Source of the DNA: Dehalococcoidia bacterium
GTDB lineage: Bacteria; Chloroflexota; Dehalococcoidia; Lucifugimonadales; JAAXIE01
Direction: 5' to 3'
Assembly (NCBI GenBank): GCA_965248385.1
Contig: CBDFIZ010000002.1
Coordinates: 949,904 to 1,013,903, forward strand
DNA: 64,000 bases
The notes beneath the pieces are model-generated. The model saw only the letters and a program-made list of their open reading frames with translations. It was not told the DNA's origin and did no database searches. Numbering within the stretch: the stretch's first letter is position 1; every line of letters starts with the position of its first letter. Positions 19,950-63,357 of the stretch are shown here, in pieces. Position numbers and translations under genes: made by a program.

Positions 19950-20545
19950 TGATACTCGCCCGTTGACAGCGGCCACCCCTCCCCGCTGACCTCAATGCAG
20001 GCAGGGGACTGACCCCTCAGGGGCGCCCCTGCCTTTCTTATTTCAGATCCCTCGAATCAGCGGAATGAGAATGAGCGCGAACGATGGAAATAATGGAATC
20101 TCCCTCCCTCTCTGGAAGGATCCCAGTCCGCTGAAATGCGGTGCAATGCGGCAAGCTGAATCAGGTAGGGCAACGGCAAATGCGGCGTACTACAGATACA
20201 AGAAATTCCCCTCAGCTACGGCCGTTGCCGCATCCCAACTACGCCAGCGACAACACCGGCATCGCACCTCAGCTACGACTCATCCCTTTTGGGCGAGGCA
20301 CTGCCACTGCTGGGAAGCACCGCGTGTCACAGTCTGACCGTATCTAACTAGCTACGAACATGTCACAAATGTCATAGGTCTCAGATAGAATAAACCTGAT
20401 TTTAGCTACGACCAGTGTGACATCCCCAGCTACGGAACGGTCCCAAACTGGAGTTTTGGGCATGCATCATATCCTCACCTCTTCTTGCGCCGCCAGCGGC
20501 AGGCCTACGCAACGGCAGTAGCATCTCCCGCCTTGTGCTACCATT
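19950..20545 (+). ncRNA. structured noncoding locus A of the YYY-AGCTACG family (candidate novel RNA or leader)
   Basis: Promoter box TGATA-N8-TTGACA; 5' hairpin 20000-20033; AGCTACG at 20214, 20271, 20350, 20404 and 20428; two CAGATA-N15-AGCTACG cores with complementary flanks; no frame-conserved ORF. Confidence 0.5.
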
Positions 20546-20606
20546 GGCCACGCAGAACAGAGACGCCAGCACTGACTAACCCCGCCCAAAATCCCGGAGG
20601 TGCTCC

Positions 20607-22202
20607 TTGGTAGACCCCATAAGCTTGGAAGTGTTCAAGAACCTGTTCGTATCCGTCTCCGAGGAGATGGGGGTTGCCCTGCAGCGCACGGCCTACTCCC
20701 CCAACATGAAGGAGCGGCTGGACTTCTCTTGCGCTATATTCGACCCCGACGGTGCCATGGTGGCCCAAGCGGCCCACATCCCGGTGCACTTGGGCGCAAT
20801 GCCTTTCTCCGTGGCCGCCGCCATAAATCATGTCAGCCCGCTCGGGCAGGGCGACATCGTCATCCTGAACGACCCCTACTTGGGCGGCACTCATCTGCCT
20901 GACATCACCATGGTCGGACCAGTCTTCATCGGCAGTGGTGCCAACCGACAGTTAGCGGGCTTCGTCTCCAACCGGGGCCATCATGCTGACGTTGGAGGTA
21001 TGACCCCCGGCTCGCTCCCACTTTCCACTGAGCTATACCAGGAAGGCACCATCATCCCTCCCCTGAAGCTAGCCCGCCGGGGCAGGCTGAACGCTGAAGT
21101 GGTGCAACTCATCTGCCGGAACTCCCGTACCCCTGATGAGCGCAAGGGCGACTTGGCAGCCCAAGTGGCCTCCATACGCGTGGGAGAGCGCAGGTTGGCC
21201 GAAATTGCCGAACGGTACGGCATGGAGACCACGCGGGAGCACATGGACGCCATCCTTGATTACTCCGAGAGGCGCACCCGCGCGGCCATCAGCCGAATAC
21301 CCGATGGCAGTTACCACTTCCTCGACTACATGGACGACGACGGCCAAGTGGAGCAACTGGTCCCCATCGCGGTGACCATCACCGTTGACGGCGACCATCT
21401 CACCGCAGACTTTGAGGGCACTTCGCCCCAGCGTCCCGGCTGCATCAACGCTCCTTACGCTGTCACCACCTCCGCGGTGCTGTACTCCGTGCGCTGCATC
21501 ACCGGCGGTGATGTTCCCCCTAATCAAGGTTGTCTGCGTCCTGTCACCATCATCACGCCCGAAGGCTCGCTGGTGAATCCCCAGCCACAGCGGGGAGTGG
21601 CTGGGGGCAACGTTGAGACCTCCCAGCGCATTACCGACGTGCTGCTTGGAGCGTTGGCGCAAGCCCTGCCCGACGTTATACCCGCCGCCAGCCAAGGCAC
21701 GATGAACAACCTGCTCATCGGCGGACATGACCCGGTGCGCGGCAAGGCGTTTGTTTACTACGAGACCATCGCGGGAGGCATGGGCGCCCGCCCTGACAAA
21801 GACGGCGTGTCGGGCATCCACACGCACATGACCAACACCATGAACACTCCCGTCGAGGCCTTGGAGTTCGCCTTCCCGCTGCGCCTGCAGGAGTACTCTA
21901 TCCGGCGAGGCACCGGCGGGGCTGGCCTGCACCGTGGCGGCGACGGTGTACAGCGAGACGTAGAGTTCCTAAGCCCGGCCCGCGTCACTATCCTCTCGGA
22001 GCGCCGTAAGCGCGCCCCGTATGGTCTGCAAGGGGGCCATCCCGGCCACCACGGCGAGAACGTGCTACTGCGCAGCGGCTACGAAGAGGTGCGCCTCTCT
22101 GGCAAGGAGACCCTCGACGTGCTGGCAGGCGACGTCCTCAGCATACGCACCCCCGGCGGTGGCGGCTGGGGCGCACCGACGGACGAGTCCCCCGCCGACT
22201 AA
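20607..22202 (+). CDS. hyuB: hydantoinase B/oxoprolinase family protein
   Basis: TTG start with a GGAGG RBS; [11 protein letters not shown]-terminus; 531 aa. Confidence 0.93.
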
Positions 22203-22239
22203 ATAGCCCACCGTATCCGTTCGTCACCCTCGGTGCCAT

Positions 22240-22340
22240 TCCTGGATTCCGGCAACGCGGGAATCTAGGGCGGTCCGGGCAATGGAGCCCTCGGTCGTGG
22301 AGCGGCCCTTGGATACCGGCTTCCGGCGGTATGATTCCGG
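22240..22340. repeat. REP-like palindromes between convergent hyuB and pheA
   Basis: GGATTCCGGCAACGCGGGAATC (22245-22266) is the same ATTCC-N-GGAAT type as at 19791/19862. A second hairpin, ATACCG...CGGTAT, lies at 22313-22332. Confidence 0.55.
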
Positions 22341-22369
22341 CTAGGCTACGTTAGGTGGCAAGAAGGTCC

Positions 22370-23197
22370 TTACTCCCTCCACCTTGGGTAGGAGCCGAAG
22401 ATGCGGAGCATTAAGGTATGGGCGCGCACGGCTTCGATGGCTTCCCGGACTACCTGGTTCTCTCGGTGGCCCTCGCAGTCGACGAGGAAGATGTACTCGC
22501 CTAGGGCGTTCTTGGCGGGGCGCGATTCGATCTTAGCTAGGTTGACGTTGCGCTCAGCGAACTCCCTCAAAGCTTCGTACAGAAGCCCTGCCTTGTCGTC
22601 GGCGAAGGAAAAGCAGAGGGATGTCTTGTCGTCGCCCGTAGGCGGGCTGTCCTGTTTGTTGAGCACGACAAACCGGGTGACGTTGTGTTCGCTGTCCTGA
22701 ATGCCTTTGGCCAGCACCTCCAGACCTCTTAGCTGGGCGTTGCGCCAAGGCGCGATAGCGGCTGCGCCGGCGGGGCCCTCAACCACCGAGTCTGCGGCAG
22801 TCGCGTTGCTGAGAGAGGACTCCAGCCGGGCTCTCGGGAAGCACCTCTCTAGGAAGCCGCGGCACTGCCCCAAGGACTGGGGGTGGGAGTAGACCACGTC
22901 GATGTCTGCGGTGCGGGTGCCCGGTCTGACCAGCAGGCAGTGCTCGATAGGGAGCACCAACTCCCTGTTGATGAACAGCTTCTCCTCGTGAATCAGCAGG
23001 TCGAGGGTTGCTGTGACCGATCCCTCTAGGTTGTTCTCGATGGGCACGACACCCTCTTGCGCCATGCCTGAGGAAACGGCAAGGGCGACGGCCGCCACGG
23101 TGGGGAAGGACTCCAACTCGCCTTGTGAGTCGTAGAGGATGGCAGCTTCTTCAGTGAAGGTGCCCATCGGCCCCAAGTACGCGATACGTTTGGGCAT
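22370..23197 (-). CDS. pheA: prephenate dehydratase
   Basis: IAYLGPMGTFTEEAA N-terminus, TRF motif, C-terminal ACT domain (ESRP). Confidence 0.92.
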   Translation of the reverse strand: MPKRIAYLGPMGTFTEEAAILYDSQGELESFPTVAAVALAVSSGMAQEGVVPIENNLEGSVTATLDLLIHEEKLFINRELVLPIEHCLLVRPGTRTADIDVVYSHPQSLGQCRGFLERCFPRARLESSLSNATAADSVVEGPAGAAAIAPWRNAQLRGLEVLAKGIQDSEHNVTRFVVLNKQDSPPTGDDKTSLCFSFADDKAGLLYEALREFAERNVNLAKIESRPAKNALGEYIFLVDCEGHRENQVVREAIEAVRAHTLMLRIFGSYPRWRE

Positions 23198-23856
23198 CAG
23201 GCCATGCTCGTGAGGATGTCGTGCAACATCGGCTCCTCGTAGGTGGTGGTTACGGCAATCACTTCGTCATTAGCGGTGAGGATGAGAGAGTCGGAGGGCA
23301 GGTAGGGACCGTCTTGCTTCACTAGCAGGATGATGAAGCTGTTGGGTGGCAGCTGCAGGTCGACCGGCGATTTGCCCACGGCTCCCGAGTCTTCAGGGAG
23401 CGTGATGCTGACCATCCGGACCTCCGCCGAGCGCAGGTTCATCAGGTGCTGCAGGGTGCGGCCGGGCAACTCCTCCTCGATGGTGCTCAGTATGTGGTGG
23501 GTGCCGTTGACCACCACGTCGACACCCAGAACCTTGAACAAGGGGTCGTTTTCCGGCTCGCGCACCACTGCGATGGTCCGAGGGCTGCCGGGGCCGCTCT
23601 TGGCCATCTGGCAGGCCGCTAGGTTGTCCTCGTCACTGGCAGTGGTTACCAGTACGTCAGCGCGATTTATGCCTGCCGTTTTCAGCACCTGCACGTCGGT
23701 GGCGTCGCCGTGGAGGACAACGCTGCCCAGCTCTTGCCGGACGAGATCGCAACGGGACTGGTCTTTCTCAATTACCAGCACCTCGTGGCCAATGGCCAGC
23801 AGTGCTCGAGAGAGGTGGTAGCCCACATGCCCGTAGCCCACGATAACCACGTACAA
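23197..23856 (-). CDS. trkA: TrkA/RCK K+ transport regulatory protein (TrkA-N + TrkA-C)
   Basis: VVIVGYGHVGYHL Rossmann motif plus a C-terminal RCK_C domain. Confidence 0.85.
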   Translation of the reverse strand: MYVVIVGYGHVGYHLSRALLAIGHEVLVIEKDQSRCDLVRQELGSVVLHGDATDVQVLKTAGINRADVLVTTASDEDNLAACQMAKSGPGSPRTIAVVREPENDPLFKVLGVDVVVNGTHHILSTIEEELPGRTLQHLMNLRSAEVRMVSITLPEDSGAVGKSPVDLQLPPNSFIILLVKQDGPYLPSDSLILTANDEVIAVTTTYEEPMLHDILTSMA

Positions 23857-23863
23857 AGCGAGG

Positions 23864-24262
23864 CTACCCTTCCAGCCCCGATGTGATGCCGTCCACCAAA
23901 GCCATGGTGGGACTGATGACGGTCAGGCCTAGGCCCTCGTAGACCTTCTGGCGATGGGGGTCGCGTATGGAGCAGAACACCTTGGGGACATGGAAGATGC
24001 GTTGCGCCACTTGGGCGGCCATGCCGTTGCGGCTGTCGCTATCGGTAAGGGCCAAAAAGACGTCAGCGTTGCTGAGGCCTGCTTGGCGCAGATTGTCCAG
24101 CATTGGCTCTCGGTACAGCATGCCTTCCACGTTGTCCACTCTCGAAAGCTCTTCTACCAAGTCGGGGTCGCTATCGATGGCCACGACATGATGCCCTTTT
24201 TTCGCCAACATCGGCGTCAGGTGCAGCCCTGCGCCTTGGCACCCCAGTACTAGGATGCGCAT
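23864..24262 (-). CDS. TrkA-N (RCK NAD-binding) domain protein
   Basis: MRILVLGCQGAGLHL Rossmann motif; 132 aa, no RCK_C domain. Confidence 0.75.
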   Translation of the reverse strand: MRILVLGCQGAGLHLTPMLAKKGHHVVAIDSDPDLVEELSRVDNVEGMLYREPMLDNLRQAGLSNADVFLALTDSDSRNGMAAQVAQRIFHVPKVFCSIRDPHRQKVYEGLGLTVISPTMALVDGITSGLEG

Positions 24263-24265
24263 CCC

Positions 24266-24703
24266 CTAGTGTCCCACTCCGGGATGTTCCAGAGGCCCAC
24301 GCCACAGCAGGACTGGGCAGGCGGCATTCTTTAGCACGTATTGGACAGTTTCGCTGAGCACTTGAGAGCCCTTCTTGTAGCTTGCTGTCATGGCGATGAG
24401 GTCTATATTCCTGTCCATCGCCTCTTGAACGATGGCCGGGCCAGCGTGACGCGCTTGTACCAATGCGGTGTCGGCGGGACATCGCTCCTCGTGGCAGAGG
24501 GCGTCGATGCGCTCGAGAACGCTTTCAGCTGCGGCCGTCTCCCGTGGGAGGTTGGCGTCCAAGGGGTATTCGTGGCCCAATTCGATGACATAAAGGGCTT
24601 GGACCTTGGCGCCATCTTGGCGGCCTATGCGGCAGGCCATGCGCACGGCCTCTTCGCCGACTTTGCGTCCGGTGACTGGCACCATAATCTTCTTCGCCGC
24701 CAA
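24266..24703 (-). CDS. universal stress protein (UspA family)
   Basis: KIMVPV..S..A...A, 145 aa, C-terminal ...VLKNAACPVLL. Confidence 0.85.
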   Translation of the reverse strand: MAAKKIMVPVTGRKVGEEAVRMACRIGRQDGAKVQALYVIELGHEYPLDANLPRETAAAESVLERIDALCHEERCPADTALVQARHAGPAIVQEAMDRNIDLIAMTASYKKGSQVLSETVQYVLKNAACPVLLWRGPLEHPGVGH

Positions 24704-24820
24704 GGCTGCTACTCAGTGGTCATTCTGGACTATAATCCTAGGTTAACGCCGATGGAATGGCGCGCTCTTTCCGTTTAGCGAAACAGCCGACATGCTCATG
24801 GCTAGCCGGACTTGCCCAAG

Positions 24821-25492
24821 CTATCTGCCGTTGGGCGAGAAGCCGAGCTTGCCCAAATCCTCGCTCTTTCCCGCCACAATCAATACGTCGCCGGGTTTGA
24901 TTTCCTCATCCTTGGAGGGTGTCAGCAGCACATCGCGGCCGCGGCGCATGGCTAGTACCGCCACGCCGTGCCTGTCTCGCGGACCAGCCAGGCCAGCTTC
25001 CTCCAGCGTTTGTCGCATGATGGAGCCGGGTGGTCGCAGCTTGCTGATGCCGGTGTTGGGCGCAATCTCCATGTAGTCCAACTCGCCGGGGTTGAACTCG
25101 GTGTGGGCCAACCGACGCCCCATCTCCTGTTCGGGGTAGACCACTTTGTCGACGCCCACCCGTTCCAGGGTGGCCCCGTGAACGTCATTGGCGGCCCGGG
25201 CGATGATGAAGGGCACGCCTCGGCTCTTGAGAAGCACTGCGACGACGATGCTGGCTTGCATGTCGGAGCCGATGCCCACGATCCCCACGTCGAAATTGGA
25301 TACGCCCAGCTCGGTCAGCACTAATTCGTTTGTTGCATCGGCCTTGACTGCATACGTCACAGAACCCAAGAGTTCCTGGACATTGCTTTCTTCAAGGTCT
25401 ATGGCCAAGACGTCGTGGCCCGTCTGATACAACTCGCGGGCTACACTGGACCCAAACCGACCCAGCCCCACTACCACTACTTGCTTCTTCAA
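24821..25492 (-). CDS. ktrA: KtrA/TrkA K+ uptake peripheral subunit
   Basis: VVVVGLGRFGSSVAREL Rossmann motif plus RCK_C; adjacent to the TrkH/KtrB gene. Confidence 0.88.
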   Translation of the reverse strand: MKKQVVVVGLGRFGSSVARELYQTGHDVLAIDLEESNVQELLGSVTYAVKADATNELVLTELGVSNFDVGIVGIGSDMQASIVVAVLLKSRGVPFIIARAANDVHGATLERVGVDKVVYPEQEMGRRLAHTEFNPGELDYMEIAPNTGISKLRPPGSIMRQTLEEAGLAGPRDRHGVAVLAMRRGRDVLLTPSKDEEIKPGDVLIVAGKSEDLGKLGFSPNGR

Positions 25493-25530
25493 GTGATTAG
25501 CCTCGTGTGGATCGGCAATGATGGCCGACG

Positions 25531-26964
25531 CTAGCCTATTTTAACCCTTTCCTGGGCGTAACGATACAAGGATGCCTCGCCTCTGGGCACTAATGCCAGG
25601 GCCATTGTCAGGGGTCCCAACCGACCCAGCAGCATCAACACCATAAAGAGTCCCTTTCCGAAAACCGTGAGGTCGGCTGCGGCGCCAGTGGAAAGTCCGG
25701 TAGTGCCGAAGGCCGATACCGTATCGAAGAGCAACTGTCGGAAGGGTATGTCTTCAGTGAGGGTCAACAGAAGGACAGCCAGAAAGGTGATGGTCACTCC
25801 CAGCACGGCTACGGTTACGGCGCGGTGCACTTGGAAGGGGTCGATCTCCCGCCCGAATGCCTCTACCTGCTGTCGACCCCGCAGCGATGAGAATACGGCG
25901 GCGATAATCACGGCGAAGGTGGCCACTTTGATGCCTCCGGCCACGGACCCCGCTGCGCCGCCAACAAACATGAGGAAGGGGTAGAAGAGCAGCGTGAATT
26001 CCGAGGCTGCGCCAAAATCGATTGTTGAGAAGCCCGCCGTCCTTCCGCTGATTGAGTGGAAAATTGCCTGATAGATGCGCTCGCCTACGGGGAAGGCACC
26101 CAGCGTGTTCTCGTTGCCGAACTCGTTGAACAGGATGACTGCTGCCCCCAGCACGTAGAGAAAGAGACTGGTGGTCAACACCATCTTGGTATCTAGCAAA
26201 AGCCGTGAGAAGCGATGGTGACGGGAGACGTCCACCAAGGTGGCCCACCCTATGCTTCCCAAGACGATCAGAGTAGCCACGAACCCCAGAAGAGGCAGGT
26301 TCCGTATGAAGGAGCCACTCAGTACACTGGCTTCTTCGGGCAGAATGCTGAAGCCAGCATTGTTGAATGCGGACACTGAGAGAAAAGCGGCTTGCCACAT
26401 GGCCTCGCCAGCTTCGAAGAAGCCCAGCAGGCGCCACCACAGCACAATGATACCTAGGGCGTAGATGCCTAGGACGATCAGGATGATATTCCGGGTCACT
26501 CTAACCAAACTACCCATGCGGTCGACGCCCATAGCCTCGCGCATGAGAATGCGCTCGGCCAGACCCAAGCGGCGACCGGTGATTATCAGCAGGAACGTGG
26601 CCATGGTCATGAATCCCAAGCCGCCGACCAGCATCAGGACAAAAATCACCCCTTGGCCAAAGGAGCTCCAGTAGGCGCTGGTCGGCTCTACGATGAGTCC
26701 GGTTACGGTCACAGCCGAAGTTGAGGTGAACATCGCTGTCACGAAGGAACTGGGTCCCTCGTGGTTGTTGGATACGGGCAGCCACAGGAGCAGTCCGCCC
26801 ACCAGAATGAGGGCAGTGAATCCGCCGAACAGGATATACGGTGCGGTGAGAAAACGCTGTGGTCGCCGGACGGGAGAATCGTGGATAACCGAAGGCATTA
26901 CCTCGCGCATGCGAGGCCGTCGTACTACCCGGTCGCCGATCCTAGGACGCTGTTGGTCGGCCAA
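25531..26964 (-). CDS. trkH: TrkH/KtrB family K+ transporter membrane subunit
   Basis: Polytopic 477-aa protein with repeated pore-loop motifs (TAVTVTGL, SAFNNAGFS, SGRTAGFST, SAFGTTGLS). Confidence 0.9.
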   Translation of the reverse strand: MADQQRPRIGDRVVRRPRMREVMPSVIHDSPVRRPQRFLTAPYILFGGFTALILVGGLLLWLPVSNNHEGPSSFVTAMFTSTSAVTVTGLIVEPTSAYWSSFGQGVIFVLMLVGGLGFMTMATFLLIITGRRLGLAERILMREAMGVDRMGSLVRVTRNIILIVLGIYALGIIVLWWRLLGFFEAGEAMWQAAFLSVSAFNNAGFSILPEEASVLSGSFIRNLPLLGFVATLIVLGSIGWATLVDVSRHHRFSRLLLDTKMVLTTSLFLYVLGAAVILFNEFGNENTLGAFPVGERIYQAIFHSISGRTAGFSTIDFGAASEFTLLFYPFLMFVGGAAGSVAGGIKVATFAVIIAAVFSSLRGRQQVEAFGREIDPFQVHRAVTVAVLGVTITFLAVLLLTLTEDIPFRQLLFDTVSAFGTTGLSTGAAADLTVFGKGLFMVLMLLGRLGPLTMALALVPRGEASLYRYAQERVKIG

Positions 26965-27136
26965 GCCGACCTCCCTCCAACATCAGTGAGCCCGACAACA
27001 TTGGGGTCGGCGGCTGATGGCCTCCGATGTCGCAGGATTCTAGGTTCGGCACTTTCCCAGTGTCAAATGAGAGCATGGTGCCACTAAAACATGTGGTGGG
27101 GGAGATGCACCGCGGTTGCTGCGAGCGTTCCACCGC

Positions 27137-29374: not shown

Positions 29375-29379
29375 GGGTC

Positions 29380-30352: not shown

Positions 30353-31095
30353 TGACATCAGCCCGTTGACACGGCTGTCCTTCCCCACCTAGGCTCGACA
30401 TATGGCTCCAAAAACGCAATCAGCGAAAACACCCGTAGCAGGGCCGCCAGCAACGGGTGTCGGAAAACCCCTTGCCAATACCCCTTGTAACAACACGCCA
30501 CCGGGCAGACCCACGTGTAGCGGCCACGCCAACCTGCTACCTGCGTGGCCTCTCAATGGTACGTGTGTGTCCCATAAAAGCCCGTTATTTCGTAGCTGGA
30601 TTTACCCAAATGAGACAAATGAGACACATTACAGATACGGAGAATGCGTTTTTAGCTACGACCAGTGTCTCATCTGTACCCTTTCCAGATACGATTCTGG
30701 CCATGTCACTGAGACCAAAACGGTACACCATGTCTCACCCCATACACAGCCTTCCATACCCATGTCGGGCCAAGCGGACCGGATACAACGACGTCACAAA
30801 TGCACAGGCATCAGCTACGAAAACGTGAATTCGTGTGTCAACCCCTTGACTAAAGCAAAGCTGACGCATCGCTGCGCCGGTCCAAATCCCGGTACAATAA
30901 AATGCATACAATTTATGACGGATATAGCATTGGAAGTTAACGAGAGATGCAAAAGACTAGCATTGGAACACCACAAACACCACAAAATGCGAACGTCCAA
31001 GGCCAGTAATGCCGGTTGTCATGCCAAGACCTCCGGCAAAGCAGCAACGGACTCGTGAGAGGGCTAGAGCCTGCCCCGGACCCGGTCCGGGGGGT
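30353..31095 (+). ncRNA. structured noncoding locus B of the YYY-AGCTACG family
   Basis: Promoter box TGACA-N8-TTGACA-N18-TAGGCT; TCGTAGCT (30590) pairs with AGCTACGA (30654); ATGAGACA x2 (30610, 30619) with complements at 30666 and 30731; lower-GC 3' half with further tandem word duplications. Confidence 0.5.
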
Positions 31096-31340
31096 GACGG
31101 TGATTCACGGCGCTTTAACCATGCCACATACAACATTCGAAAGACCCTGGCCATTGCCCGCACTCTGTGGCCATCGGGGTCCACGACCCAGTACTCTTGA
31201 ATGTTGTGCCGGGGTATAGGTTCAGCTTGATTCGCCGGTCACGACTGGCCGTAGACGGCGACACCACCACACCGGTTTGCGCGTCCCAAGCTGCTGTTGT
31301 ACATTGAATCGTCAAATCATCACGCTGGTGGCGCAGGGAT

Positions 31341-40731: not shown

Positions 40732-41230
40732 TGACACCGGCCCGTTGACAGCTACGCCCTATCCGCTCTAGTGTTGATGCAGGCAGGGGATCGACCTTCA
40801 AGGTCGCCCCCCTGCCCTTTCCATTCGGCCCCATTTCGAAAGGAACGCAGTGCGCGACGGGAACGCGAACAAGCTGGCAAAGCTGACTCACATACGACAG
40901 CGCGAGAAATGCGAGACGCTGCAGATACAAAAAAGTTCGTTCCAGCTACGACCGGTCTCGTCTCTCAGCTACAAACCGCAATGTTCTCGCCAAGCCACGC
41001 CGCCACGGGAGCCTCATGGACGCACCGTGCCAAAGCTGTCTCAGTTGAAGAGACCGCAGGAATTGCAGTGCATTCAGCTTCAAACAATTGCGCTGCAGAC
41101 ACGAATGGACTGCAATTCTCCAACGATCTTGAGCCGCTACCCGTAAGTCTGGGCGGGAGCCGCGGGAGCCCTCGGCGTATACACGGCCTTATTGACTGGA
41201 AGTAGCCAAAAGTTGTACCTTGATAGCTGG
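40732..41230 (+). ncRNA. structured noncoding locus C of the YYY-AGCTACG family
   Basis: Promoter box TGACA-N8-TTGACA-N18-TAGTGT; 5' hairpin 40782-40816; nested stems GCGAGAA/TTCTCGC and CGAGAC/GTCTCG around CAGATAC-N15-AGCTACGACC; long-range stem 41059-41068/41110-41118. Confidence 0.5.
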
Positions 41231-55293: not shown

Positions 55294-55446
55294 CCGGTGC
55301 TTCCTCCTTGTACAGACTTGCCGCCTTGCCGGAGGCGTTAGGTGATACCCAATCCCTCCGGGTATAGCAGGCTGGCAGGCTCGCGGCCTGCCAGCCTTGT
55401 GTGGCGACTGCTCTTGTTGGTATGTCGCCTGCGCTAGCGCGTCGGC

Positions 55447-56574
55447 CTACAGGAAGCTGAAGTTCTCGAAGTTGCCGTTGACGATGGGCTTCGCTTCCAA
55501 GCCTAGCCAGTTCTCCAGGATGGTGGTGTACACGCCACGGAAGTCGTGGGTGGGCACCAAGTCACCCTGCTGCAGGTCCTCGGCCTTGCGGGACGGGTAC
55601 TCGCCGTAGATGCCGCCATTGACGGTTTCGCCGACCATGAAAGCGACTCCGGCGGCGCCGTGGTCTGTACCAGACCCGTTGTCGTGGACGCGACGGCCGA
55701 ACTCGGAAAACAGGAGCATGACCACGTTGTCCGCGGCGTCATGCTCGCGCAAGTCCTCAAAGAAGTCTTCAACCGCCTCGGAGACCTCGGTCCACAGTTT
55801 GTGGTGGCCGGGCACCTGGCTGGCGTGGGTGTCGAAACTGCTGTGCTCGGTGTAGAAGATGCGGGTGCCCAGGCCGGCTAGGTGTATCTGAGCGATGTCC
55901 CTCAGCCGGCGGGCGACGGGGCTGGCAGCGTACTCCACGGTGGAGGAGTAGCGGGCCGGGGCCTCCTTCAGGATGTCGGCGCCTTTCATGGCGTCAAGGC
56001 CGGTGCTACCTAGGTACTCCATGACCTGTCCCCGCCCGATGGCTGGGGAGTAGACCCTGGAGAAGGTGTCGAGCATAGCGTCGCGCTGCTGCTCGGCCTC
56101 CATGCCAGTGAACAGGCCGTAAGTGGCCAAGTCGGGCACTGAGGCCACGGGCACACCACGCACCACCAGTGCCCGGGGCAGGCCTTGGCCGATGTTGACC
56201 GTGGAGATTACGTTCTCCTGACCGGGGTCCAGCTCGCGCGTGGCCCGCCCCAGCCAACCCTCGGTGCCGACGGTCTCTGGCTCGCAGGTATGCCAGATAT
56301 CCATGGAGCGGAAGTGGGATCGTGGGGAGTTGGCGTAACCCACGCCGTTGATCACCGCCACGTTGCCTTGGTCGTACATCCGCTTCATAGCTTGCATGGC
56401 CGGGTTAAAGCCGAGCTCGTCATCCAGCTTGATGATCTGGTCCTCGGGTAGGCCCACTGCAGGCCGGTTGTCGCGGTACAGAGGGTCGTTGTAGGGAATC
56501 ACCGTGTTGAAGTAGTCGTTGCCGCCGCTGAGCTGCAAGACCACAAAGACCGGGTCTTTCTTAGTCGCAGTCAT
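55447..56574 (-). CDS. DUF1501 domain protein (sulfatase-like fold)
   Basis: LSGGNDYFN, SEFGRR...N..GTDHG. Start set at the ATG at 56574 with a GGAGGA RBS. Confidence 0.85.
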   Translation of the reverse strand: MTATKKDPVFVVLQLSGGNDYFNTVIPYNDPLYRDNRPAVGLPEDQIIKLDDELGFNPAMQAMKRMYDQGNVAVINGVGYANSPRSHFRSMDIWHTCEPETVGTEGWLGRATRELDPGQENVISTVNIGQGLPRALVVRGVPVASVPDLATYGLFTGMEAEQQRDAMLDTFSRVYSPAIGRGQVMEYLGSTGLDAMKGADILKEAPARYSSTVEYAASPVARRLRDIAQIHLAGLGTRIFYTEHSSFDTHASQVPGHHKLWTEVSEAVEDFFEDLREHDAADNVVMLLFSEFGRRVHDNGSGTDHGAAGVAFMVGETVNGGIYGEYPSRKAEDLQQGDLVPTHDFRGVYTTILENWLGLEAKPIVNGNFENFSFL

Positions 56575-56707
56575 TGCTCCTCCTCTCGGGTGGGGTTGGG
56601 GGCATCCATGGGGCGAGACCCTATGGATGCCCTGCTCTTGCTTTCTGATGGCTAGGCATACAGTGGCCGAAGCCACTACATGCCGCCGTTTTACTTCTCT
56701 GCGCTCT

Positions 56708-58129
56708 TTACGCGAACTGGAACTCGCGGGTGGCTGCGATTAGCTGGAGCACGGAGCTGACCCGCGCCTCAGCGTGGGATGCGCTCCACTTTAGGTCGCC
56801 GTCATTGGCGGCTTGCTCCACAAGCTCCTTGCGAGTGCCCTCGTCCACATTCAGCGGGCCCATCTGGTCCAAGCAGTTATCCACCAACTGCGCCGGGGTC
56901 ATATCGCCTGCTGACCGCAGTCGCTCGATGATGTCGCGCACGCCGGGCAGGTCAGTGTCGCCGAACCGATCAGACATGAAGTTGATGCGGGCCATGAGCG
57001 AACCGCTGTTGATCCACTCCTCGCCCGTGTGCCATCCCTCCACGCTGGGGGGGTTTAGCAGGTCCTGTCCCATATATGTCGGCTGCATCGACAGGTTGCC
57101 GATGCCCGGGCCGGGGAAGGCGGAGCCGCCGACTGTCCGCAGGGTGTTCACCACGACTTCAGCAGGGCTCTTCACATGGGCGTAACGCACGCTGGCGTCC
57201 TTGAAGAAGTCGGAGTTGAACAGGGTCCGCAGCACGGCCTTCATTTCCAAGCCGGAGTCACGGAAGCTGTTGGCCAGGGTCTCGATGGCCTGCGGGTCTC
57301 GCGGGGCATCGATCTGCCACGCGGGTACCTGCACCTCGTCGGCCACGAAGAAGTTGTACAGATGGCGCGCCACGAAGTGGTGGCATGCCTGCTGCTGCAC
57401 CACGATGTCTAGGATATCCTCGCCGTTGAGCTTGCCGGTGTGACCTAGGAAGGTCTTCTCGTCGTCGTCGTGGTCTTCGGGGCGGTATTCGAACTTCCAA
57501 GGGTAGCGACCGTAGGGCAGGCGGGGAATCTTGTACTCAAAGGTCCAGCCGGTGAAGGCCCGCGATGCCTCGCGCACATCCACCTCGGTATAGTTGCCTA
57601 CACCCATGCTGAACAGCTCCAGCAACTCACGCCCCCAGTTCTCGTTGACGGCTTGGGCGTGGTTCTCGTTCTGGTCCAGCCAGAAAATCATGGCCGGATT
57701 GGTGGCTATGTCCATCAGGATGGAGCGGTAGTTGCCCATGCCGTTGTCCCGGAACATGTCAATCTGCTGGTTCAACTGGTCATAGTTGTCGACCTTGGAG
57801 TTTCCTGTGGCGAACACATGGTGCCAGAAGACGGCCATCTTCTCTTCCAAGGGGCGCTGGGTATTCAGAAGGTGGTACATCCAGTTAACGTTGCCCATGG
57901 GAGGCTGGCCGCCTGCGAGAAGGGCTCCGGGATGGTACCGCAGCATCTCGTATCGGTCGGCTTGGGGTATGTTGTCATCCGGGTTGAGCAACTCCTCTAC
58001 TGTAGCCTCGTAGCCCTTTTCGCAACGGGCTTCGATTTCGCTACGAGTGGCGCCAAACCCGGCGCGTCGCATGAGGTGCGCCATCAGCGCTATGTCATCT
58101 TTGTTGGCCACTTTCCCCTCCTTTCTCAT
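56708..58129 (-). CDS. DUF1800 domain protein
   Basis: HLMRRAGFGATRSEIE... family-like N-terminus. Classic DUF1800-DUF1501 gene pair. Confidence 0.85.
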   Translation of the reverse strand: MRKEGKVANKDDIALMAHLMRRAGFGATRSEIEARCEKGYEATVEELLNPDDNIPQADRYEMLRYHPGALLAGGQPPMGNVNWMYHLLNTQRPLEEKMAVFWHHVFATGNSKVDNYDQLNQQIDMFRDNGMGNYRSILMDIATNPAMIFWLDQNENHAQAVNENWGRELLELFSMGVGNYTEVDVREASRAFTGWTFEYKIPRLPYGRYPWKFEYRPEDHDDDEKTFLGHTGKLNGEDILDIVVQQQACHHFVARHLYNFFVADEVQVPAWQIDAPRDPQAIETLANSFRDSGLEMKAVLRTLFNSDFFKDASVRYAHVKSPAEVVVNTLRTVGGSAFPGPGIGNLSMQPTYMGQDLLNPPSVEGWHTGEEWINSGSLMARINFMSDRFGDTDLPGVRDIIERLRSAGDMTPAQLVDNCLDQMGPLNVDEGTRKELVEQAANDGDLKWSASHAEARVSSVLQLIAATREFQFA

Positions 58130-58201
58130 ATCAGGGGTGATTTGGCTCGGATTCTAGCACCTGGGATGCCACTGGCCAAATTGGGGGTCCACCTGTGGAC
58201 T

Positions 58202-58720
58202 CTATGGAATGGGGTGCACCAACTCGCCGCCGACGGCGTGGCGGGTGGGCACACGCTGGGTCTGGGCGCCCTTGGTCTCCCAGAATAGCTCGGCTATCTG
58301 CTGGGTGGTGGCCAACAGCTGCTCGGCGGCTGCCAGGTCCACCTCTTGGCGGGTGCGCGATGCCAGCTTCATGGCATTCCAGAAGAGGGTATGCACGTCG
58401 GGGTGCTGCTCTAGGTGAGTGGGGTTGAAGTAGTCGCCCCAGAGGATGCGAAGCTCGCGCTTGCACATCTCGGCGTGCTCTTCCTTGGAGGCTATGTACC
58501 GGCCAAGCTTGGCGTCGTGGACCTCCACCTCGTCGGCGGGGGCGTGGGCATCGGGCTTGGGAAGGTCACGAATGAGCTGGTTCATCCGCAGTATGGTGAG
58601 GGCTGCCACTTGGGACTGATGGGGGTCGTAGATGCCACAGGGCACGTCGCAGTGGGCGTGGGCTTCTTCCGGGGTTACCACACGAGCCAAGCTGCGAAGC
58701 GCATGGTAGATTAGTCGCAT
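58202..58720 (-). CDS. sodN: nickel superoxide dismutase precursor
   Basis: Propeptide followed by the Ni-hook HCDVPCGIYDP; GGAGGA RBS. Confidence 0.92.
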   Translation of the reverse strand: MRLIYHALRSLARVVTPEEAHAHCDVPCGIYDPHQSQVAALTILRMNQLIRDLPKPDAHAPADEVEVHDAKLGRYIASKEEHAEMCKRELRILWGDYFNPTHLEQHPDVHTLFWNAMKLASRTRQEVDLAAAEQLLATTQQIAELFWETKGAQTQRVPTRHAVGGELVHPIP

Positions 58721-58799
58721 ATTTCCTCCACGTTAGCTTGATTAGGTTTTGATGGCCTCAAGTGTACCAGAGGGCAAAAAGAGCGGCAATCGAAGGGAC

Positions 58800-59329
58800 A
58801 ACTCGTCACTGTCACAGACTGGCCTCATTTAGATGGCTGTCTCCAGACCTGCCCGTGGATTGAGGGACGCATTTGCACGCAGGTGTGCACGCATGGTGGC
58901 GCCCCGTAGCTGAGGTGAGGCGATGGGCGTGCATGCTGCCTAGCTGGGGTTGCACGGCGTTTGTAGCTGCGGCGAATTTTTTCGTAGCTAATCCCCCTGC
59001 AATCCCTGCAATTGGGTCCTTTGGTGCAGCTAGCGACCAGCTACGACTTTGGATGTGCATCGGCACTGCATGGTGGGGACGGGCGTGGCAGCGGCGGATG
59101 TTGGATTCTCGTGGCGATGCCGTAGCTGCGGTGGGCTGAGGAGGGGCCTGCACCGATTGTTGTCCTTCAGATGGTTGCAGTTTTTGCACGAGGCGTCCTT
59201 CTCAAGTCGAGTTATGGCCGAAGTTGAATCGTAGGGCCAAATGGAAAGCCGGTGCCACCTCGATGGGTTCGTCCCCGGCCTATGGTCATACTAGCCGAAT
59301 GAGTGTTGGGAGACAATGGCCGATTGTCA
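58800..59329 (-). ncRNA. structured noncoding locus D of the YYY-AGCTACG family (minus strand, upstream of sodN)
   Basis: Minus-strand promoter box TGACA-N8-TTGTCT-N17-TAGTAT (59288-59329). Six AGCTAC(G/A)/AGCTAGG copies. Adjacent tandem ATTGCAGGG x2 (58995-59012). TGCGTGCA x2 with a complement flanking AGCTACG (58874-58934). Confidence 0.5.
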
Positions 59330-59457
59330 TGGCTGGGTGGTGGGGTGCAGATTGTGGTTTGCGATAACGATTGATGCTCTGCCGTTGGGCGGGACGAATC
59401 AGAAAGGAAAGCGCAGATCCACTAACGCGATGCACTAGAATGGCGTTGGGTGGTCCT

Positions 59458-59943
59458 ATGCGCCTATCGCTCGTCTCATATCTAATGTCCCTTATCCGCG
59501 CCCGGCGCTTCATAGTGCGCGGCGCGAGTATGGAGCCTGGTTTCCGCGATGGCGACTGCCTGCTGGTAGACCGTGGCGCGTACGGCAGGCGAGTCCCTGC
59601 TCGTCATGAGGCAGTGGTACTGCGTCTGCCTCATGACGAGCAGGCTTATTTGAAGCGTATCGTGGGTTTGCCGGGGGAGTGGGTCCGCTTGGAATCTGAA
59701 GCGGTGATGGTGGACGGCAAGGCGATCCGCGAACCATATCTGGCTGACAGGAGCATACCCCAAGAGTTCGTCGGTCAGGAGTGGTACTTGGGGCCCGATG
59801 ACTACTTGGTGCTGGGTGATACCCGAAGAGATAGTTTCGACAGCCGCAGGTTTGGCCCTGTGAGTGTGGAGCAGCTTGTGGGATCGGTACTGTTCCGCTA
59901 CTGGCCGTCGTCGCGTTGGGGTAGGGGTTCGACCCCTGCCTAA
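59458..59943 (+). CDS. sodX: S26 family signal-peptidase-like Ni-SOD maturation protease
   Basis: GASMEP catalytic Ser motif, LKRIVGLPGE, GDTRRDSFDSR. Start uncertain (59440/59458). Confidence 0.85.
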   Translation: MRLSLVSYLMSLIRARRFIVRGASMEPGFRDGDCLLVDRGAYGRRVPARHEAVVLRLPHDEQAYLKRIVGLPGEWVRLESEAVMVDGKAIREPYLADRSIPQEFVGQEWYLGPDDYLVLGDTRRDSFDSRRFGPVSVEQLVGSVLFRYWPSSRWGRGSTPA

Positions 59944-60926
59944 CGGGAGTCCTCGGCCAACCAGCGGGCGGCGTCCTTGGCGAAGTAGGTGATGATCATG
60001 TCGGCCCCAGCCCGCTTGATGGCGGTGAGCAGTTCGAGGGCCACGCGCTTGCCGTCAATCCACTCGTTCTGGGCGGCGGCGTGCACCATGGCGTACTCGC
60101 CACTGACGCTGTAGGCAGCGATGGGGTGGTTGTACTGCTCCCGCACCCGGGCGATGACATCGAGGTAGGCCAAGGCTGGCTTGACCATGATGACGTCGGC
60201 CCCCTCCTGGATGTCGGTCTCAATCTCCCGCATCGCCATGCGCGAGTTGGCCGGGTCCATCTGGTAAGTATGCCGGTCGCCGAAACGGGGCGTGGACTCG
60301 GCGGCCACGCGGAAGGGCCCGTACAGGGCGGAGGCGTACTTGGCGGAGTATCCAATGACGGGGGTCTCGATGTACCCAGCGGCGTCAAGGGCGGTACGAA
60401 TGGCGCCGACTTGGCCGTCCATCATGGCGGAAGGGGCGACGGCGTCGGCACCGGCGGCGACCTGCGAGACGGCGGTGCGAGCCAGAAGCTCGAGAGTTTC
60501 GTCGTTATCGATGGCCTCGTGCTTCACCACGCCACAATGGCCGTGGTCGGTGTACTCGCACAAGCAGACATCGCCGATGACCATGAGTTCCGGCACGGTC
60601 TTCTTTAGGAGGCTGGAGGCCTGCTGGATAATGCCATCGTCGTCGTATGCCCCCGATCCCACGGCGTCCTTCACTTCGGGTATGCCGAACAGCAGCACTG
60701 CCGGAATGCCTAGGGAGGCAACTTCCACGGCCTCGCGTTCCAACAGGTCTAGGGAAAGCTGGTAGCAGCCGGGCAGCGGTCCGATTTCCTGGCGCACGTT
60801 GTGGCCATGGGTGACAAATAGAGGATAGATGAACTCGTTGGGGCTAAGGCGTGTCTCCTGCACCATCCTTCTGAGGGATGGTGTGCCCCTCAAGCGACGC
60901 AGGCGCGCCTGAGGATAACCTACCAT
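59940..60926 (-). CDS. hemB: porphobilinogen synthase
   Basis: RLRRLR N-terminus; active-site Lys region VKPAL.YLD; 328 aa. Confidence 0.95.
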   Translation of the reverse strand: MVGYPQARLRRLRGTPSLRRMVQETRLSPNEFIYPLFVTHGHNVRQEIGPLPGCYQLSLDLLEREAVEVASLGIPAVLLFGIPEVKDAVGSGAYDDDGIIQQASSLLKKTVPELMVIGDVCLCEYTDHGHCGVVKHEAIDNDETLELLARTAVSQVAAGADAVAPSAMMDGQVGAIRTALDAAGYIETPVIGYSAKYASALYGPFRVAAESTPRFGDRHTYQMDPANSRMAMREIETDIQEGADVIMVKPALAYLDVIARVREQYNHPIAAYSVSGEYAMVHAAAQNEWIDGKRVALELLTAIKRAGADMIITYFAKDAARWLAEDSR

Positions 60927-60928
60927 TG

Positions 60929-61729
60929 CTATGTCCTCCCGTGGGTATAATGCTCTTTTAGAGTCTGCACCAGCCCTTCGCTGGTGTGGTCCGACGCTAC
61001 TACGTCGATCTGCAAGCCCTTGTGCCGTGCCGCTTCGGCAGTAACCGGCCCAATACAGGCTAGCACAACTGGGGCCAGTTGCTCTATACGCCCCTCCAGC
61101 ACACTTACCATACTGCGCACAGCAGAGGGGCTGGTGAAGGTGGCTACGTCCAGCCCACCGCGCAACGCTTCGTGCACCTGGATTCCGGCGTTGTGGGGGA
61201 TTTCGGTGCGGTACAAGGAGATGTGTTTCACCTCCGCACCCAGCGCTTCCAAGCTAGGCGGAAGCTCGGCGCTGCCCTCCTCGGCCCGTGGCAGTAGTAC
61301 CCGCTTACCTTGCAGGTCGAGGCTGCTCATCGCCTTCACGATTCCCGCAGTCCGGTGGTCGTGGGGCATCAGGGCAACCTCAATGCCACGCTGTTTCAAA
61401 GATTGGGATGTAGCAGGGCCAATAGCGGCCACAGATAGTGCGTGAAGGTGCTTCTCATCCAGTCCAAGGGCGAGCAGCCAGTCGAAGAAAACCTCCACGC
61501 CATTCACGCTGGTGAACACAAGCCAGTGGTAGTCGTCTAGGGACAGCAGTGCCTGCTTGATGGCCCCGTCATAGTCTAGGCACGGGCGAATGGAGATGAG
61601 GGGCGCCTCCACCGGCGTGGCCCCCTCATCTCCCAGCAGACGTACGAGCGAGGCGGCTTGCGCTTGCGGGCGCGTGACCAGCACCCGCAAGCCCTTCAGC
61701 GACCGGGCGGTCTGCTGTGGATTAGCCAT
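60929..61729 (-). CDS. hemD: uroporphyrinogen-III synthase
   Basis: LKGLRVLVTRPQ...; between hemC and hemB. Start trimmed to the ATG at 61729. Confidence 0.85.
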   Translation of the reverse strand: MANPQQTARSLKGLRVLVTRPQAQAASLVRLLGDEGATPVEAPLISIRPCLDYDGAIKQALLSLDDYHWLVFTSVNGVEVFFDWLLALGLDEKHLHALSVAAIGPATSQSLKQRGIEVALMPHDHRTAGIVKAMSSLDLQGKRVLLPRAEEGSAELPPSLEALGAEVKHISLYRTEIPHNAGIQVHEALRGGLDVATFTSPSAVRSMVSVLEGRIEQLAPVVLACIGPVTAEAARHKGLQIDVVASDHTSEGLVQTLKEHYTHGRT

Positions 61730-62630
61730 TCTGTAACTCCGAAACCGGCGCCCCACTCTCGATCAATGCTTGGAGACAGCTGGCCGCCACGGCATGGGGG
61801 TCTGGGCTCCCAAAAGCGTAAACTTGAGAAGAATCGTCTTCTCCCCATGCCAAGTAACCAATGAGATGCAGCAGTCCGTCCTGCAGGCGCGCATAAGCGC
61901 CCATAGGTAGCTGGCACCCTCCACCCAGAAGCTCCAAAAGGTGACGCTCGGCAGTTATTTCCTGCCTTGTCGGAGTGTGTTCCAAAGCGGCGACCGCATC
62001 TACGACGCCAGTGTCGTCTGTGCGAGTCTGCACCGCTAGCGCCCCCTGACCTGGGGCGGATACGAACTGTCGCTGTGGGAGGCGCTCAGCGATGTCGCCA
62101 TCGAGACCCAGCCGGTCCATGCCCGCGGCGGCCAACACCGCTCCGTCGTAGTCTTCTCCCTTGGCCTTTCCCAAGCGTGTCTCAACGTTTCCACGCATGG
62201 GAAGCACTTGCAGGTCAGGACGCTGGTTCCTGAGTTGGGAGGCCCTTCGTGGGCTGCTGGTGCCGATGCGCGCCCCCTTGGGAAGCTGCTCCAGTGAGCA
62301 TCCCCAACGGTTGACCAGGACGTCCCGTGGGTCAGCGCGTTGGCAGACCGCGGCTATGGTGAGGCCCTCAGGTGACTGGGTGGGCAGATCCTTGAGGCTG
62401 TGCACTGCTAGGTCCACCTCGCCCCTCAGCAGGGCGTCCTCCAACTCCTTCACGAACATGCCCCGACCCATCCCCGCTAGCGATGCCTCGGGGGAGGCAT
62501 CGGCTTGGGTGCGAACGCGGACGACCTCCACATCCAGACCCGGCGAGAGAGCACGCAGACGCTCCACCACCTCATTGGTCTGGGCCATGGCCAGTCTGCT
62601 GGCCCGGCTACCTACGCGTAAGCTGTTCAT
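61722..62630 (-). CDS. hemC: hydroxymethylbilane synthase
   Basis: LRVGSRASRLAMAQT..., HSLKDLPT, GTSSPRR. Confidence 0.95.
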   Translation of the reverse strand: MNSLRVGSRASRLAMAQTNEVVERLRALSPGLDVEVVRVRTQADASPEASLAGMGRGMFVKELEDALLRGEVDLAVHSLKDLPTQSPEGLTIAAVCQRADPRDVLVNRWGCSLEQLPKGARIGTSSPRRASQLRNQRPDLQVLPMRGNVETRLGKAKGEDYDGAVLAAAGMDRLGLDGDIAERLPQRQFVSAPGQGALAVQTRTDDTGVVDAVAALEHTPTRQEITAERHLLELLGGGCQLPMGAYARLQDGLLHLIGYLAWGEDDSSQVYAFGSPDPHAVAASCLQALIESGAPVSELQNG

Positions 62631-62838
62631 GTTGACCGCATTGCAGCAACATCAAAATCTAGTCTCTGGACTTGTCGATGCTATTGCACAACCCTTCGCA
62701 GCATACTACAAACGGGTTTCTGGTGCGTCACGGTACGTACGACGACCCGATATCGGACGGGGGCGGCTTTACCGTCATTTGGGCCTGGAGCCGGAATCAA
62801 GTGGGTCCCGGCCTCCGGGGACCGTTCCCCAACACCTA

Positions 62839-63357
62839 TGACATTAGCCCGTTGACGGGGACTGCTGTTCCCCTCTAGCCTTCGTACAGACCCGTCCCGT
62901 TCACGACTGGTCCCTCTCTTGGTAGACCACTTCTTGAGGTGCCAAAACATGCGGACCCCTCGCAAGGACAGTCCCGTGGCTGTTCACTACGCACGCGTAC
63001 ACACTCGCCGCTCCAGTGGTCCAGCCCGATGCCATAAAATGTGGCATAGAAATCCCTTAATTTCGTAGTTGAATTGATTACGAATGCTACAGATGCTACA
63101 TAACGCAGATACGGTAAAACGCATTTTAGCTACGAGGCGTCTGGCATGTGAACAAGCCACAGCTACGATTCGTAGCAACCATGGGATAGATGAGACCGAA
63201 ACCAGATAAAAAACTCGCGTCAGCTACAACTACTGTCCCATCCGAAGCTGCAAGGACGGTCGTGATGCAAGGATCTCCCTCCGGAGGGATAACGGTCGGC
63301 TGTCCCCCAGAAGATCCCCTTGATATACTTTCTTGTAGCTACAGCGAGGCACAGCGT
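62839..63357 (+). ncRNA. structured noncoding locus E of the YYY-AGCTACG family (upstream of gatB)
   Basis: Promoter box TGACA-N8-TTGACG-N18-TAGCCT. TCGTAGTT (63063) pairs with AGCTACGA (63128). ATGCTACA x2 (63084, 63093). CAGATAC-N15-AGCTACG. GCTACGA-TT-CGTAGC hairpin (63162-63176). The last AGCTACA lies 8 nt before the gatB SD. Confidence 0.5.

Follow-up and report, generated by a model that had tools for sequence, protein, structure and literature searches.

Correia elements in Neisseria and BOX elements in Streptococcus pneumoniae are interspersed modular intergenic repeats that are co-transcribed with their neighbours and can supply promoters and RNA hairpins. The "putative mobile promoters" discussed in connection with promoter propagation in prokaryotes are homologous promoter-bearing upstream regions that lie before unrelated genes. 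Among transposons, the ISAs1 family has inverted repeats of 14-22 bp starting with CAGGG and a 10-bp direct repeat (PMC11946415). Here we analyzed a 64,000-nt stretch of a Dehalococcoidia bacterium genome (contig CBDFIZ010000002.1, positions 949,904 to 1,013,903, called the window below), in which five intergenic gaps (named loci A to E) had been predicted from the letters alone to be related structured elements. Our analysis shows that they belong to an undescribed, high-copy, interspersed family of an uncultured SAR202-like Chloroflexota clade and are not a five-member curiosity.

When read directly, the five gaps are copies of one non-coding family with ordered blocks, amounting to 2.7 kb, or about 4% of the window, of otherwise "empty" DNA. 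The repeated AGCTAC-type motif noted in the original prediction is best written as YAG(A/C)TACR, which has 36 matches in the window versus 8.6 +/- 3.2 expected. Inside the loci, 22 matches lie on the sense and 4 on the antisense strand (8.05 per kb of sense strand), compared to 0.082 per kb per strand outside them, an approximately 100-fold and strand-specific enrichment. This density, together with the unit model described below, bears out both the motif and the existence of a real family with shared blocks. The start-to-start spacings reported for the conserved core (22 nt in four units and 21 nt in a fifth) were all found as claimed; the core itself is two motif copies with a motif-to-motif distance of 21 nt.

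To describe the repeated unit of ~100 nt, 40 examples from the window and from related genomes (stretches of the latter carry L-numbered labels, and 29 blocks of 8 kb each were used) were gathered and aligned. The 5' part of the unit contains, in order, AAGCUGRAC, YCAGAUACGA, a word W1, a word W2, and CAGAUAC, and the 3' part contains an A-rich/U-rich mini-hairpin, CAGCUACGACC, the reverse complement of the word (W'), and YCC-CAGCUACG. Up to four copies of the 9-nt motif YCAG(A/C)UACGA surround the helix in each unit. W1 and W2 are near-identical tandem copies, and W1:W' and W2:W' are paired in 85.0% and 85.7% of the cells, respectively, versus 29-44% after the partner is shifted by 1-3 columns. 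Double changes occur in all nine helix pairs, and the observed covariation score was reached by none of 500 shuffles. The words comprise AUGAGAC, AUGCGAC, AUUCGAC, AUGCGGC, AUGCUAC, AUGUCAC, and AUGGGAC, with AUUGCAG, AUGGAAC, and CUGGCAG added by units outside the training set. The compensatory change first noticed in the window is therefore genuine, and it involves both 5' words: the helix sequence is free to change, and the 3' strand stays complementary to both tandem partners. With both words covarying with the 3' arm, a single simple hairpin does not describe the fold. In loci B, D, and E, the unit is preceded by an anti-motif (UCGUAKCUG) complementary to a downstream motif copy. The words do not match the starts of the downstream genes, and the ideas that they are antisense to the downstream start codon or serve as a codon-like specifier were therefore rejected.

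A covariance model of the unit (named R1), run unfiltered on the window, has no matches outside the five loci, in which it identifies 1-2 units each, in every case on the strand that had been predicted, and also recovers untrained units in loci B, C, D, and E. On the plus strand, locus A holds unit A1 (20153-20248, 65.2 bits; words CGGCAA and AUGCGGCGU, 3' arm UUGCCGCAU) and unit A2 (20340-20438; AUGUCACAA and AUGUCAUAG, 3' arm GUGUGACAU), the latter defined by the model and by comparison with orthologous units in L185 and L184. Locus B holds unit B1 (30592-30688, 80.3 bits; AUGAGACAA and AUGAGACAC, 3' arm GUGUCUCAU), whose anti-motif UUUCGUAGCUGG (30591-30602) is complementary to CAGCUACGAAA at 30812-30822, and a weak second unit (30771-30824, 17.4 bits, E 0.013). 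In locus C, unit C1 (40880-40978, 79.8 bits; GCGCGAGAA and AUGCGAGAC, 3' arm GUCUCG) has a second complement, UUCUCGC, at 40984 and is followed by a weak unit C2 (41033-41130, 13.9 bits; AUUGCAG and CUGCAAU). Locus E contains unit E1 (63066-63162, 52 bits; AUGCUACAG and AUGCUACAU, with a distal complement GUAGCA at 63172) and, outside the training set, unit E2 (63165-63256, 28.6 bits; AUGGGAUAG and AUGAGACCG, 3' arm CUGUCCCAU). The tandem word with a 3' reverse complement is present as originally described in A1, A2, B, C, and E, whereas the minus-strand unit of locus D (59032-58934, 15.7 bits) uses a word other than the one listed for it, namely AUUGCAGGG twice with the 3' arm CCGUGCAAC.

Beyond the window, a scan of one genome per species for the pattern CAGATAC-N15-AGCTACGAC yielded at least 103 stretches, at least 29 of which come from four genomes labelled "Dehalococcoidia bacterium": OZ253586.1 (16 blocks), CBDBED01 (6), OX638353.1 (5), and OZ240229.1 (2). 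R1 detects at least 52 units in these 29 blocks, usually 1-3 per locus, and gives only 10-31 bits, mostly over the bare pattern, for the 74 stretches from other taxa. A relative of the window's hyuB with 76% identity is named SAR202-cluster bacterium. Building and searching the covariance model, as had been proposed, thus confined the matches to the five loci in the window and extended the family to related genomes. Because there are five loci in 64 kb and extra loci in the 8-kb blocks, the number of copies per genome is probably of order 10^2. In one related stretch (L064, 5200-5420), five tandem 44-nt hairpins (GGUCUCAC / GUGAGACC) carry CCCUCAGCUACGAAC in each loop. This array abuts a convergent gene, with no co-oriented gene call following, and is the best candidate for a free-standing motif array; a type III toxin-antitoxin array was rejected for these repeats, as no toxin gene follows.

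Searches for described relatives of the family were largely negative. With Rfam 15 at the gathering threshold, only three tRNAs pass in the whole window, and at E<=5-10 loci A and B alone give nothing but sub-threshold chance matches. Group I and II introns, ribozymes, riboswitches, and the OLE, GOLLD, ROOL, and HEARO RNAs were rejected in the absence of any Rfam match. Nothing similar to locus B was found in plasmid and phage collections, and carriage on such replicons was discarded as a candidate. A literature search returned no mention of the motif or of such a family. The earlier remark that the loci were not recognised as a described RNA family or mobile element therefore stands for Rfam; on the mobile-element side it has to be qualified by the subfamily represented by locus B, which has ends like those of miniature inverted-repeat transposable elements (MITEs) and imperfect flanking repeats.

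The loci had also been called free of open reading frames (ORFs). In fact, ORFs of 90-218 aa are present (e.g., 30402-31058), but a coding signal is absent. In a crude gene map, the third-position G+C content (GC3) of the ORFs inside the loci is 0.51-0.55 versus 0.70-0.83 in neighbouring genes, and the ORF of locus B is shortened to 66-150 aa in homologous copies. Moreover, the alignment shows GAT and GCT to be invariant at the would-be wobble positions of the units, and frame-shifting indels separate the unit copies, so the units are not coding. An apparent in-frame core (xDT...ATT) was also considered and fails in A1 and across copies. Low GC3, broken frames, and invariant wobble positions together rule out a coding reading of the loci.

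A simple gene caller based on GC3 was used to count orientations relative to the neighbouring genes. In 35 of 37 cases, the unit and the downstream gene point the same way, and the upstream genes are arranged at random (20 co-oriented and 19 divergent). When the units are clustered into loci, sense placement directly upstream of a gene, as expected for a cis-acting leader, holds in 25 of 28. The co-orientation predicted for the window is thus confirmed there and generalises elsewhere: sense orientation to the next gene is near-universal, also inside operons. Pfam agrees with the gene identities originally proposed beside the loci, with locus A between hyuA and hyuB, locus B between hisA and a methyltransferase-hisF pair, locus C between a thiamine pyrophosphate (TPP) enzyme and tRNA-Thr-Tyr-Thr-tuf, locus D between sodN and the signal-peptidase-like sodX, and locus E between hemC... 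and gatB; the downstream genes are counted as hyuB, hisF, tuf, sodN, and gatB. In other genomes, the downstream genes include those for ribosomal protein L9 (rplI), RelA/SpoT, NorB, amidase, S15 peptidase, the L, M, and S subunits of xanthine-dehydrogenase/CO-dehydrogenase-type enzymes (coxL/M/S-type), luciferase-like monooxygenases, and short-chain dehydrogenases/reductases (SDRs). They are functionally unrelated, and a single functional class of the kind that riboswitches or T-boxes serve is not seen. Consensus scans found no terminator-like site between the cassettes, as we call the loci with their promoters, and the next gene.

Comparison of related genomes reveals that these cassettes come and go. 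In most of 80 metagenome hyuB homologues the hyuA-hyuB gap is 3-50 nt, and in some of them an LmbE/PIG-L gene lies between the two; among the JGI metagenome relatives (<=78% identity), none carries the family, and the larger gaps hold the LmbE/PIG-L gene. The syntenic relative L187 (hyuB 81% identical) has a gap of 85 nt and no unit, and L185 (89%) has a gap of 286 nt with a single unit orthologous to A2 and no box promoter. The window itself has a gap of 884 nt occupied by locus A, and L184 (90%) has one of 2473 nt with a box promoter, the 5' hairpin, one unit, and an unrelated inserted gene. The site is therefore insertion-polymorphic, and the view that locus A splits a normally adjacent pair, the pair tested comparatively, is borne out by relatives in which the two genes are adjacent. 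Two ORFs of 98 and 428 aa with no Pfam match on record lie between hyuA and the cassette of L184 (2677-4309, minus strand) and were seen in this one close relative only.

Once in place, the units change in a coordinated manner. In the orthologous unit at hyuA|hyuB, the motifs are kept and the surrounding sequence is unalignable, and the word reads AUGUCAC twice with GUGACAU in the window and L185 versus AUUUCAC twice with AUGAAAU in L184. The compensatory substitutions expected in relatives are thus seen, with the word altered at all three places together. A second orthologous set, upstream of the S15 peptidase gene in three genomes (L076, L028, and L050; flanking genes 87% identical), shows a stepwise series from GAGACC, GAGACC, GGUCUC through GCGGCC, GAGACC, GGCCGC to GCGGCA, GCGGCG, GGCCGC. 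In addition, the cassettes of L021 and L053 face opposite genes within one orthologous divergent intergenic region. From the gap polymorphism, the opposite-facing cassettes, and the conservation of words in situ, it follows that cassettes turn over between species and that units are constrained once in place.

One subfamily carries transposon-like ends. At least four copies in OZ253586.1 share 84-85% identity with locus B (30353-31149) across ~800 nt; among themselves they are 84-89% identical, and they lie beside unrelated genes. Terminal inverted repeats of 18 bp (CAGGGTCTTTCGATTATT) that start with CAGGG, like those of ISAs1 elements, delimit the OZ253586.1 copies; the repeats of L005 are 18/18 complementary and 937 nt apart, and those of L054 are 16/18 complementary. 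Flanking direct repeats are imperfect, with 8/10 matches in L005 (CCCGATGGCA/CCCAATGACA) and 6/8 in L061 (TGCTGACC/TGCTGGCT), and the flanking repeat of L054 (CATTGTGCC) is offset by 4 nt. As is typical of MITEs, there are several copies at unrelated positions, and some sites are empty in relatives. What remains in the window copy is the right arm with the right repeat alone (31064-31149, plus strand), made up of a hairpin CCCCGGACC/GGUCCGGGG, then GUGAUUCACGGCGCUUUAACC..., and the right terminal repeat ACAACATTCGAAAGACCCTG (31130-31149). Since a second, inner right arm immediately precedes the promoter in the OZ253586.1 copies, these look like composites of a left arm, a right arm, the promoter and RNA body, and a right arm. 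No terminal inverted repeats were found around loci A, C, and E, and locus D has only a 29-nt, 72% pair unlike the B-type ends. A transposase with CAGGGTCTTTCGATT ends did not turn up in the 29 blocks, in which no search was aimed at one. When seven B-type copies were analyzed with RNAalifold, long-range pairs received no net support from covariation. In another subfamily, four paralogues have segments of differing extent in common, and the homology in L045 begins at the 5' hairpin, which suggests recombination or duplication as an additional way of spreading. At least the B subfamily thus has transposon ends, and cassettes are gained and lost between related genomes.

Some further observations concern the ends of B-type elements. 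About 50 nt past the right terminal repeat of locus B lies an inverted degenerate copy, CTCTTGAATGTTGT (within 31130-31207), which may be a remnant of a neighbouring element end. The 3' module of locus B (at 31110-31122) and that of the other B-type copies contain GCGCUUUAACCA, which we take to resemble the rRNA-operon boxA antitermination element GCUCUUUAACAA, a likeness that could be due to chance. The left arm of a B-type element in L040 is interrupted by a ~1.3-kb insertion (3255-4545), which has 19-bp inverted repeats of its own (CCGTTTGCTTGTAGGGTTT / AAACCCTACAAGCAAACGG) and a Cys-rich ORF of lower G+C and lies between direct copies of the arm's end.

The box TGAYA-N8-TTGACR at the start of the loci has five occurrences in the window versus 0.10 expected. 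Four of them open loci A (19950-19992, TGATA-N8-TTGACA with the hexamer at 19963-19968 and a -10-like TGACCT ~18 nt downstream), B (30353-30395, -10 TAGGCT), C (40732-40774, -10 TAGTGT), and E (62839-62881, -10 TAGCCT), all on the plus strand. The original claim of a box shared in exact register by all five loci holds for these four; that of locus D (59287-59329, minus strand) is degenerate (TGACA-N8-TTGTCT-N17-TAGTAT), and the fifth exact copy (54186-54168, minus strand, TGACACCAGCCCGTTGACG) lies directly before radC, with a short leader and no units. This copy shows the box to be a general type of promoter in the organism, common to the loci but not private to them. A few bases past the -10 element, about half of the loci (A, C, and D, and 12 elsewhere, 15 in total) have a two-part G+C-rich hairpin with the consensus GCAGGGGACUGACCCCUCAGGGUCGCCCCUGC, then UUUUCUUUUU, and with compensatory changes such as GCCGGGG/CCCCGGC and GACCUU/AAGGUC. 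It occurs at 20000-20045 in locus A (GGCAGGGG...CCCCTGCC, then a U-rich tract), at 40782-40826 in locus C (by model and comparison, with the GACCUU/AAGGUC change in the inner stem), and at 59233-59289 on the minus strand in locus D (E 8e-11). This hairpin resembles an intrinsic terminator, one located right where the transcript begins, and may serve to attenuate or insulate the cassette promoter, or to shield the 5' end.

Our preferred explanation, held with somewhat less than even confidence, is that the loci are promoter-leader cassettes that duplicate and are in part transposable, and that their RNA units work in cis by displaying the motif to a putative factor. The predicted layout is a sigma-70-type promoter, the 5' hairpin in about half of the cases, 1-3 units, and the next gene without a 3' terminator-like site. 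The cassette would become part of the downstream gene's 5' leader or intercistronic RNA, or be transcribed along with it, and its units would offer a multivalent platform to a trans-acting factor with sequence specificity, most likely a protein. Read-through, processing, or stability of the downstream mRNA would be under the control of this factor. The 5' hairpin would dampen or insulate transcription from the cassette promoter, free-standing arrays such as that of L064 could titrate the same factor, and cassettes would spread through transposition in the case of the B type and through recombination or duplication among themselves. A cis role is favoured over that of a sponge because of the strong orientation bias and the lack of a 3' terminator-like site; the promoterless unit inside the hyuA-hyuB spacer of L185 is also counted in its favour.

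Several points weigh against this explanation. Predicted folding energies are unremarkable, with z between -0.95 and -1.94 in five of six segments and +0.60 for A1. Within the helix, G.U pairs (14-15) do not outnumber A.C mismatches (13-16), which rules out this asymmetry as proof of RNA pairing and does not set RNA pairing apart from pairing in single-stranded DNA. Transcription, read-through, and the 5' end are all deduced from the letters, and the motif-binding factor is a postulated one. A strong terminator-like hairpin right past the start site would end most transcripts before the units. The orientation bias could stem from selection against antisense or polar insertions. Finally, own promoters are apparent after the cassette at locus D, L021/L053 (TTGCRC-N17-TAGCAT), and L005; since several downstream genes seem to keep their own promoter, a leader role is not required for expression.

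The main rival explanation, which we consider unlikely, holds that these are purely selfish MITE-like elements, moved in trans by a transposase of the ISAs1 family. The promoter, hairpins, and motifs would then be of use to the element or incidental, with no RNA function at the level of the host, and the orientation bias would arise from the purging of harmful insertions. The CAGGG-starting ends of the B type, the flanking direct repeats of L005 and L061, the full copies in unrelated contexts, the insertion-polymorphic sites, and the lack of an RNA-family match all agree with it. However, such ends do not extend to loci A, C, D, and E, the other subfamily shares variable segments with no fixed end, the flanking repeats are imperfect, and no transposase accompanies the ends in the blocks at hand. 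Furthermore, units are conserved in situ with coordinated word changes amid unalignable sequence, which argues against pure selfishness, as dead transposon copies would not behave so. It is more doubtful that the loci encode trans-acting sponge small RNAs following CsrB/RsmZ logic, each locus giving its own transcript that sequesters an RNA-binding protein via YCAGMUACGA sites. Although each locus has many one-strand motif copies and its own consensus promoter, and the L064 array displays the motif in hairpin loops with no co-oriented gene call after it, no terminator-like site closes the loci as a discrete transcript would need, and a bias towards the downstream gene is unexpected for free-standing small RNA genes. 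The promoterless unit in the operon spacer of L185 also fits a sponge poorly, the motif is not a known protein site, and the implied copy number (five loci in 64 kb) is far above that of any known sponge family.

Two other possibilities appear improbable. The words and motifs might act in single- or double-stranded DNA, as recombination or transposition hairpins or as arrays for DNA-binding proteins, a view to which we give little credence. The orientation tracks the gene and not a fixed strand (locus D lies on the minus strand with its gene), the family includes a consensus promoter and a terminator-like RNA hairpin, and the motifs are strongly single-stranded in the layout and one-strand specific (22 versus 4); on the other side stand the balance of G.U pairs and A.C mismatches, the transposon ends of one subfamily, and some motif/anti-motif pairs that are perfect DNA palindromes (TATCTGGACAGATA in L185). 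The least probable reading is an RNA processing or catalytic module, in which the internal loop CAGAUAC / CAGCUACGACC between variable helices is a cleavage site or a small self-cleaving ribozyme separating messages. Two variable helices around ~20 invariant unpaired bases do recall small ribozymes and processing sites, and there are intercistronic units at hyuA|hyuB and between the coxL/M/S-type subunit genes. Nevertheless, no ribozyme family matches even at E<=10, and single motif copies and copies in plain hairpin loops exist as well, which is easier to reconcile with a binding site than with a catalytic core.

The promoter-leader cassette explanation can be extended to a genome-wide RNA control layer in SAR202-like Chloroflexota, covering about a hundred unrelated genes and operon-internal junctions through attenuator hairpins and two-state hairpins that display the 9-nt motif for a dedicated putative factor, with spread by mobile elements; this extension is speculative and, in our view, rather unlikely. 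It would give the two-state hairpin one 3' arm and two interchangeable 5' partners, a proposal that we likewise regard as a long way from probable. With similar reserve, one may imagine the factor as, e.g., an elongation/antitermination or RNA-stability protein and the regulation as "installed" by a mobile element. If functional, the cassettes would be a rare bacterial mobile non-coding element that equips many unrelated genes with both a promoter and a structured RNA module, and operons such as hyuAB and the cox-type subunit genes would have been rewired in an abundant uncultured environmental lineage. The unit, with its covariation and defined 9-nt motif, offers a handle for finding a new RNA-binding factor, and R1 is a ready marker for the clade.

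Besides the family itself, several other features were observed near the loci. Two copies of a REP-like hairpin, GTCATTCCCGCGCAGGCGGGAACCCACGGCC (19793-19822 and 19864-19893), lie between hyuA and locus A, and similar copies are present in L099, L068, and L053 (5105-5170, with a loop insertion in L053); we take it to resemble the ATTCCC-N8-GGGAAT repeats of Neisseria. A second repeat family, CCGTTCGTCCTGAGCGAAGTCGAAGGAC, forms a hairpin often with a 40-70-nt loop insertion and occurs in L021 (3375-3470), L053 (5030-5100), L064 (4385-4480), and, just upstream of the box at 1971, L092 (~1990-2030, minus strand); it is absent from the window. At 9384-9640 of the window (minus strand), a 287-nt gap with two TAGCTACG copies (9570 and 9640) precedes a small zinc-ribbon-like ORF (~46 aa, CxxC...CxxC), and the unit model matches no unit in this gap. 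In L053 (5085-5769), a HigA-like antidote gene and a small opposite-strand ORF lie directly upstream of a cassette with a perfect TTGACA-N17-TATAAT.

Compared with known systems, B-type elements are closest to ISAs1-derived MITEs, with which they share 18-bp CAGGG ends, the lack of a transposase, and several copies in unrelated sites; flanking direct repeats of 8-10 bp recall target-site duplications but are imperfect. They differ in being ~970 bp long with a promoter and RNA units as cargo and in having a composite inner right arm; moreover, window B has no left end and the other four loci have no B-type inverted repeats. The cassettes are also similar to REP, BIME, and REPIN sequences in being high-copy intergenic hairpins with compensatory changes, and the reverse complement of the motif contains GTAG. 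However, those are 20-40-nt palindromes located mostly 3' of genes, whereas the units are ~100 nt long, upstream, in sense orientation, and have two tandem 5' words. As in CsrB/RsmZ sponges and CsrA-bound leaders, a short motif is repeated in loops and single strands, but it is A(N)GGA in those systems and YCAGMUACGA here, and the cassettes, unlike CsrB/RsmZ, have no 3' terminator-like site, many copies, and a tie to downstream genes. With Correia and BOX elements, the cassettes share an interspersed, modular, promoter- and hairpin-bearing character; there is no similarity in sequence or ends, and the cassettes are 0.5-1 kb long with a full promoter box, a 5' hairpin, and an almost always sense orientation. 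Like the putative mobile promoters, they place homologous promoter-bearing regions before unrelated genes, and they add to these long covarying structured units and, in one subfamily, transposon ends.

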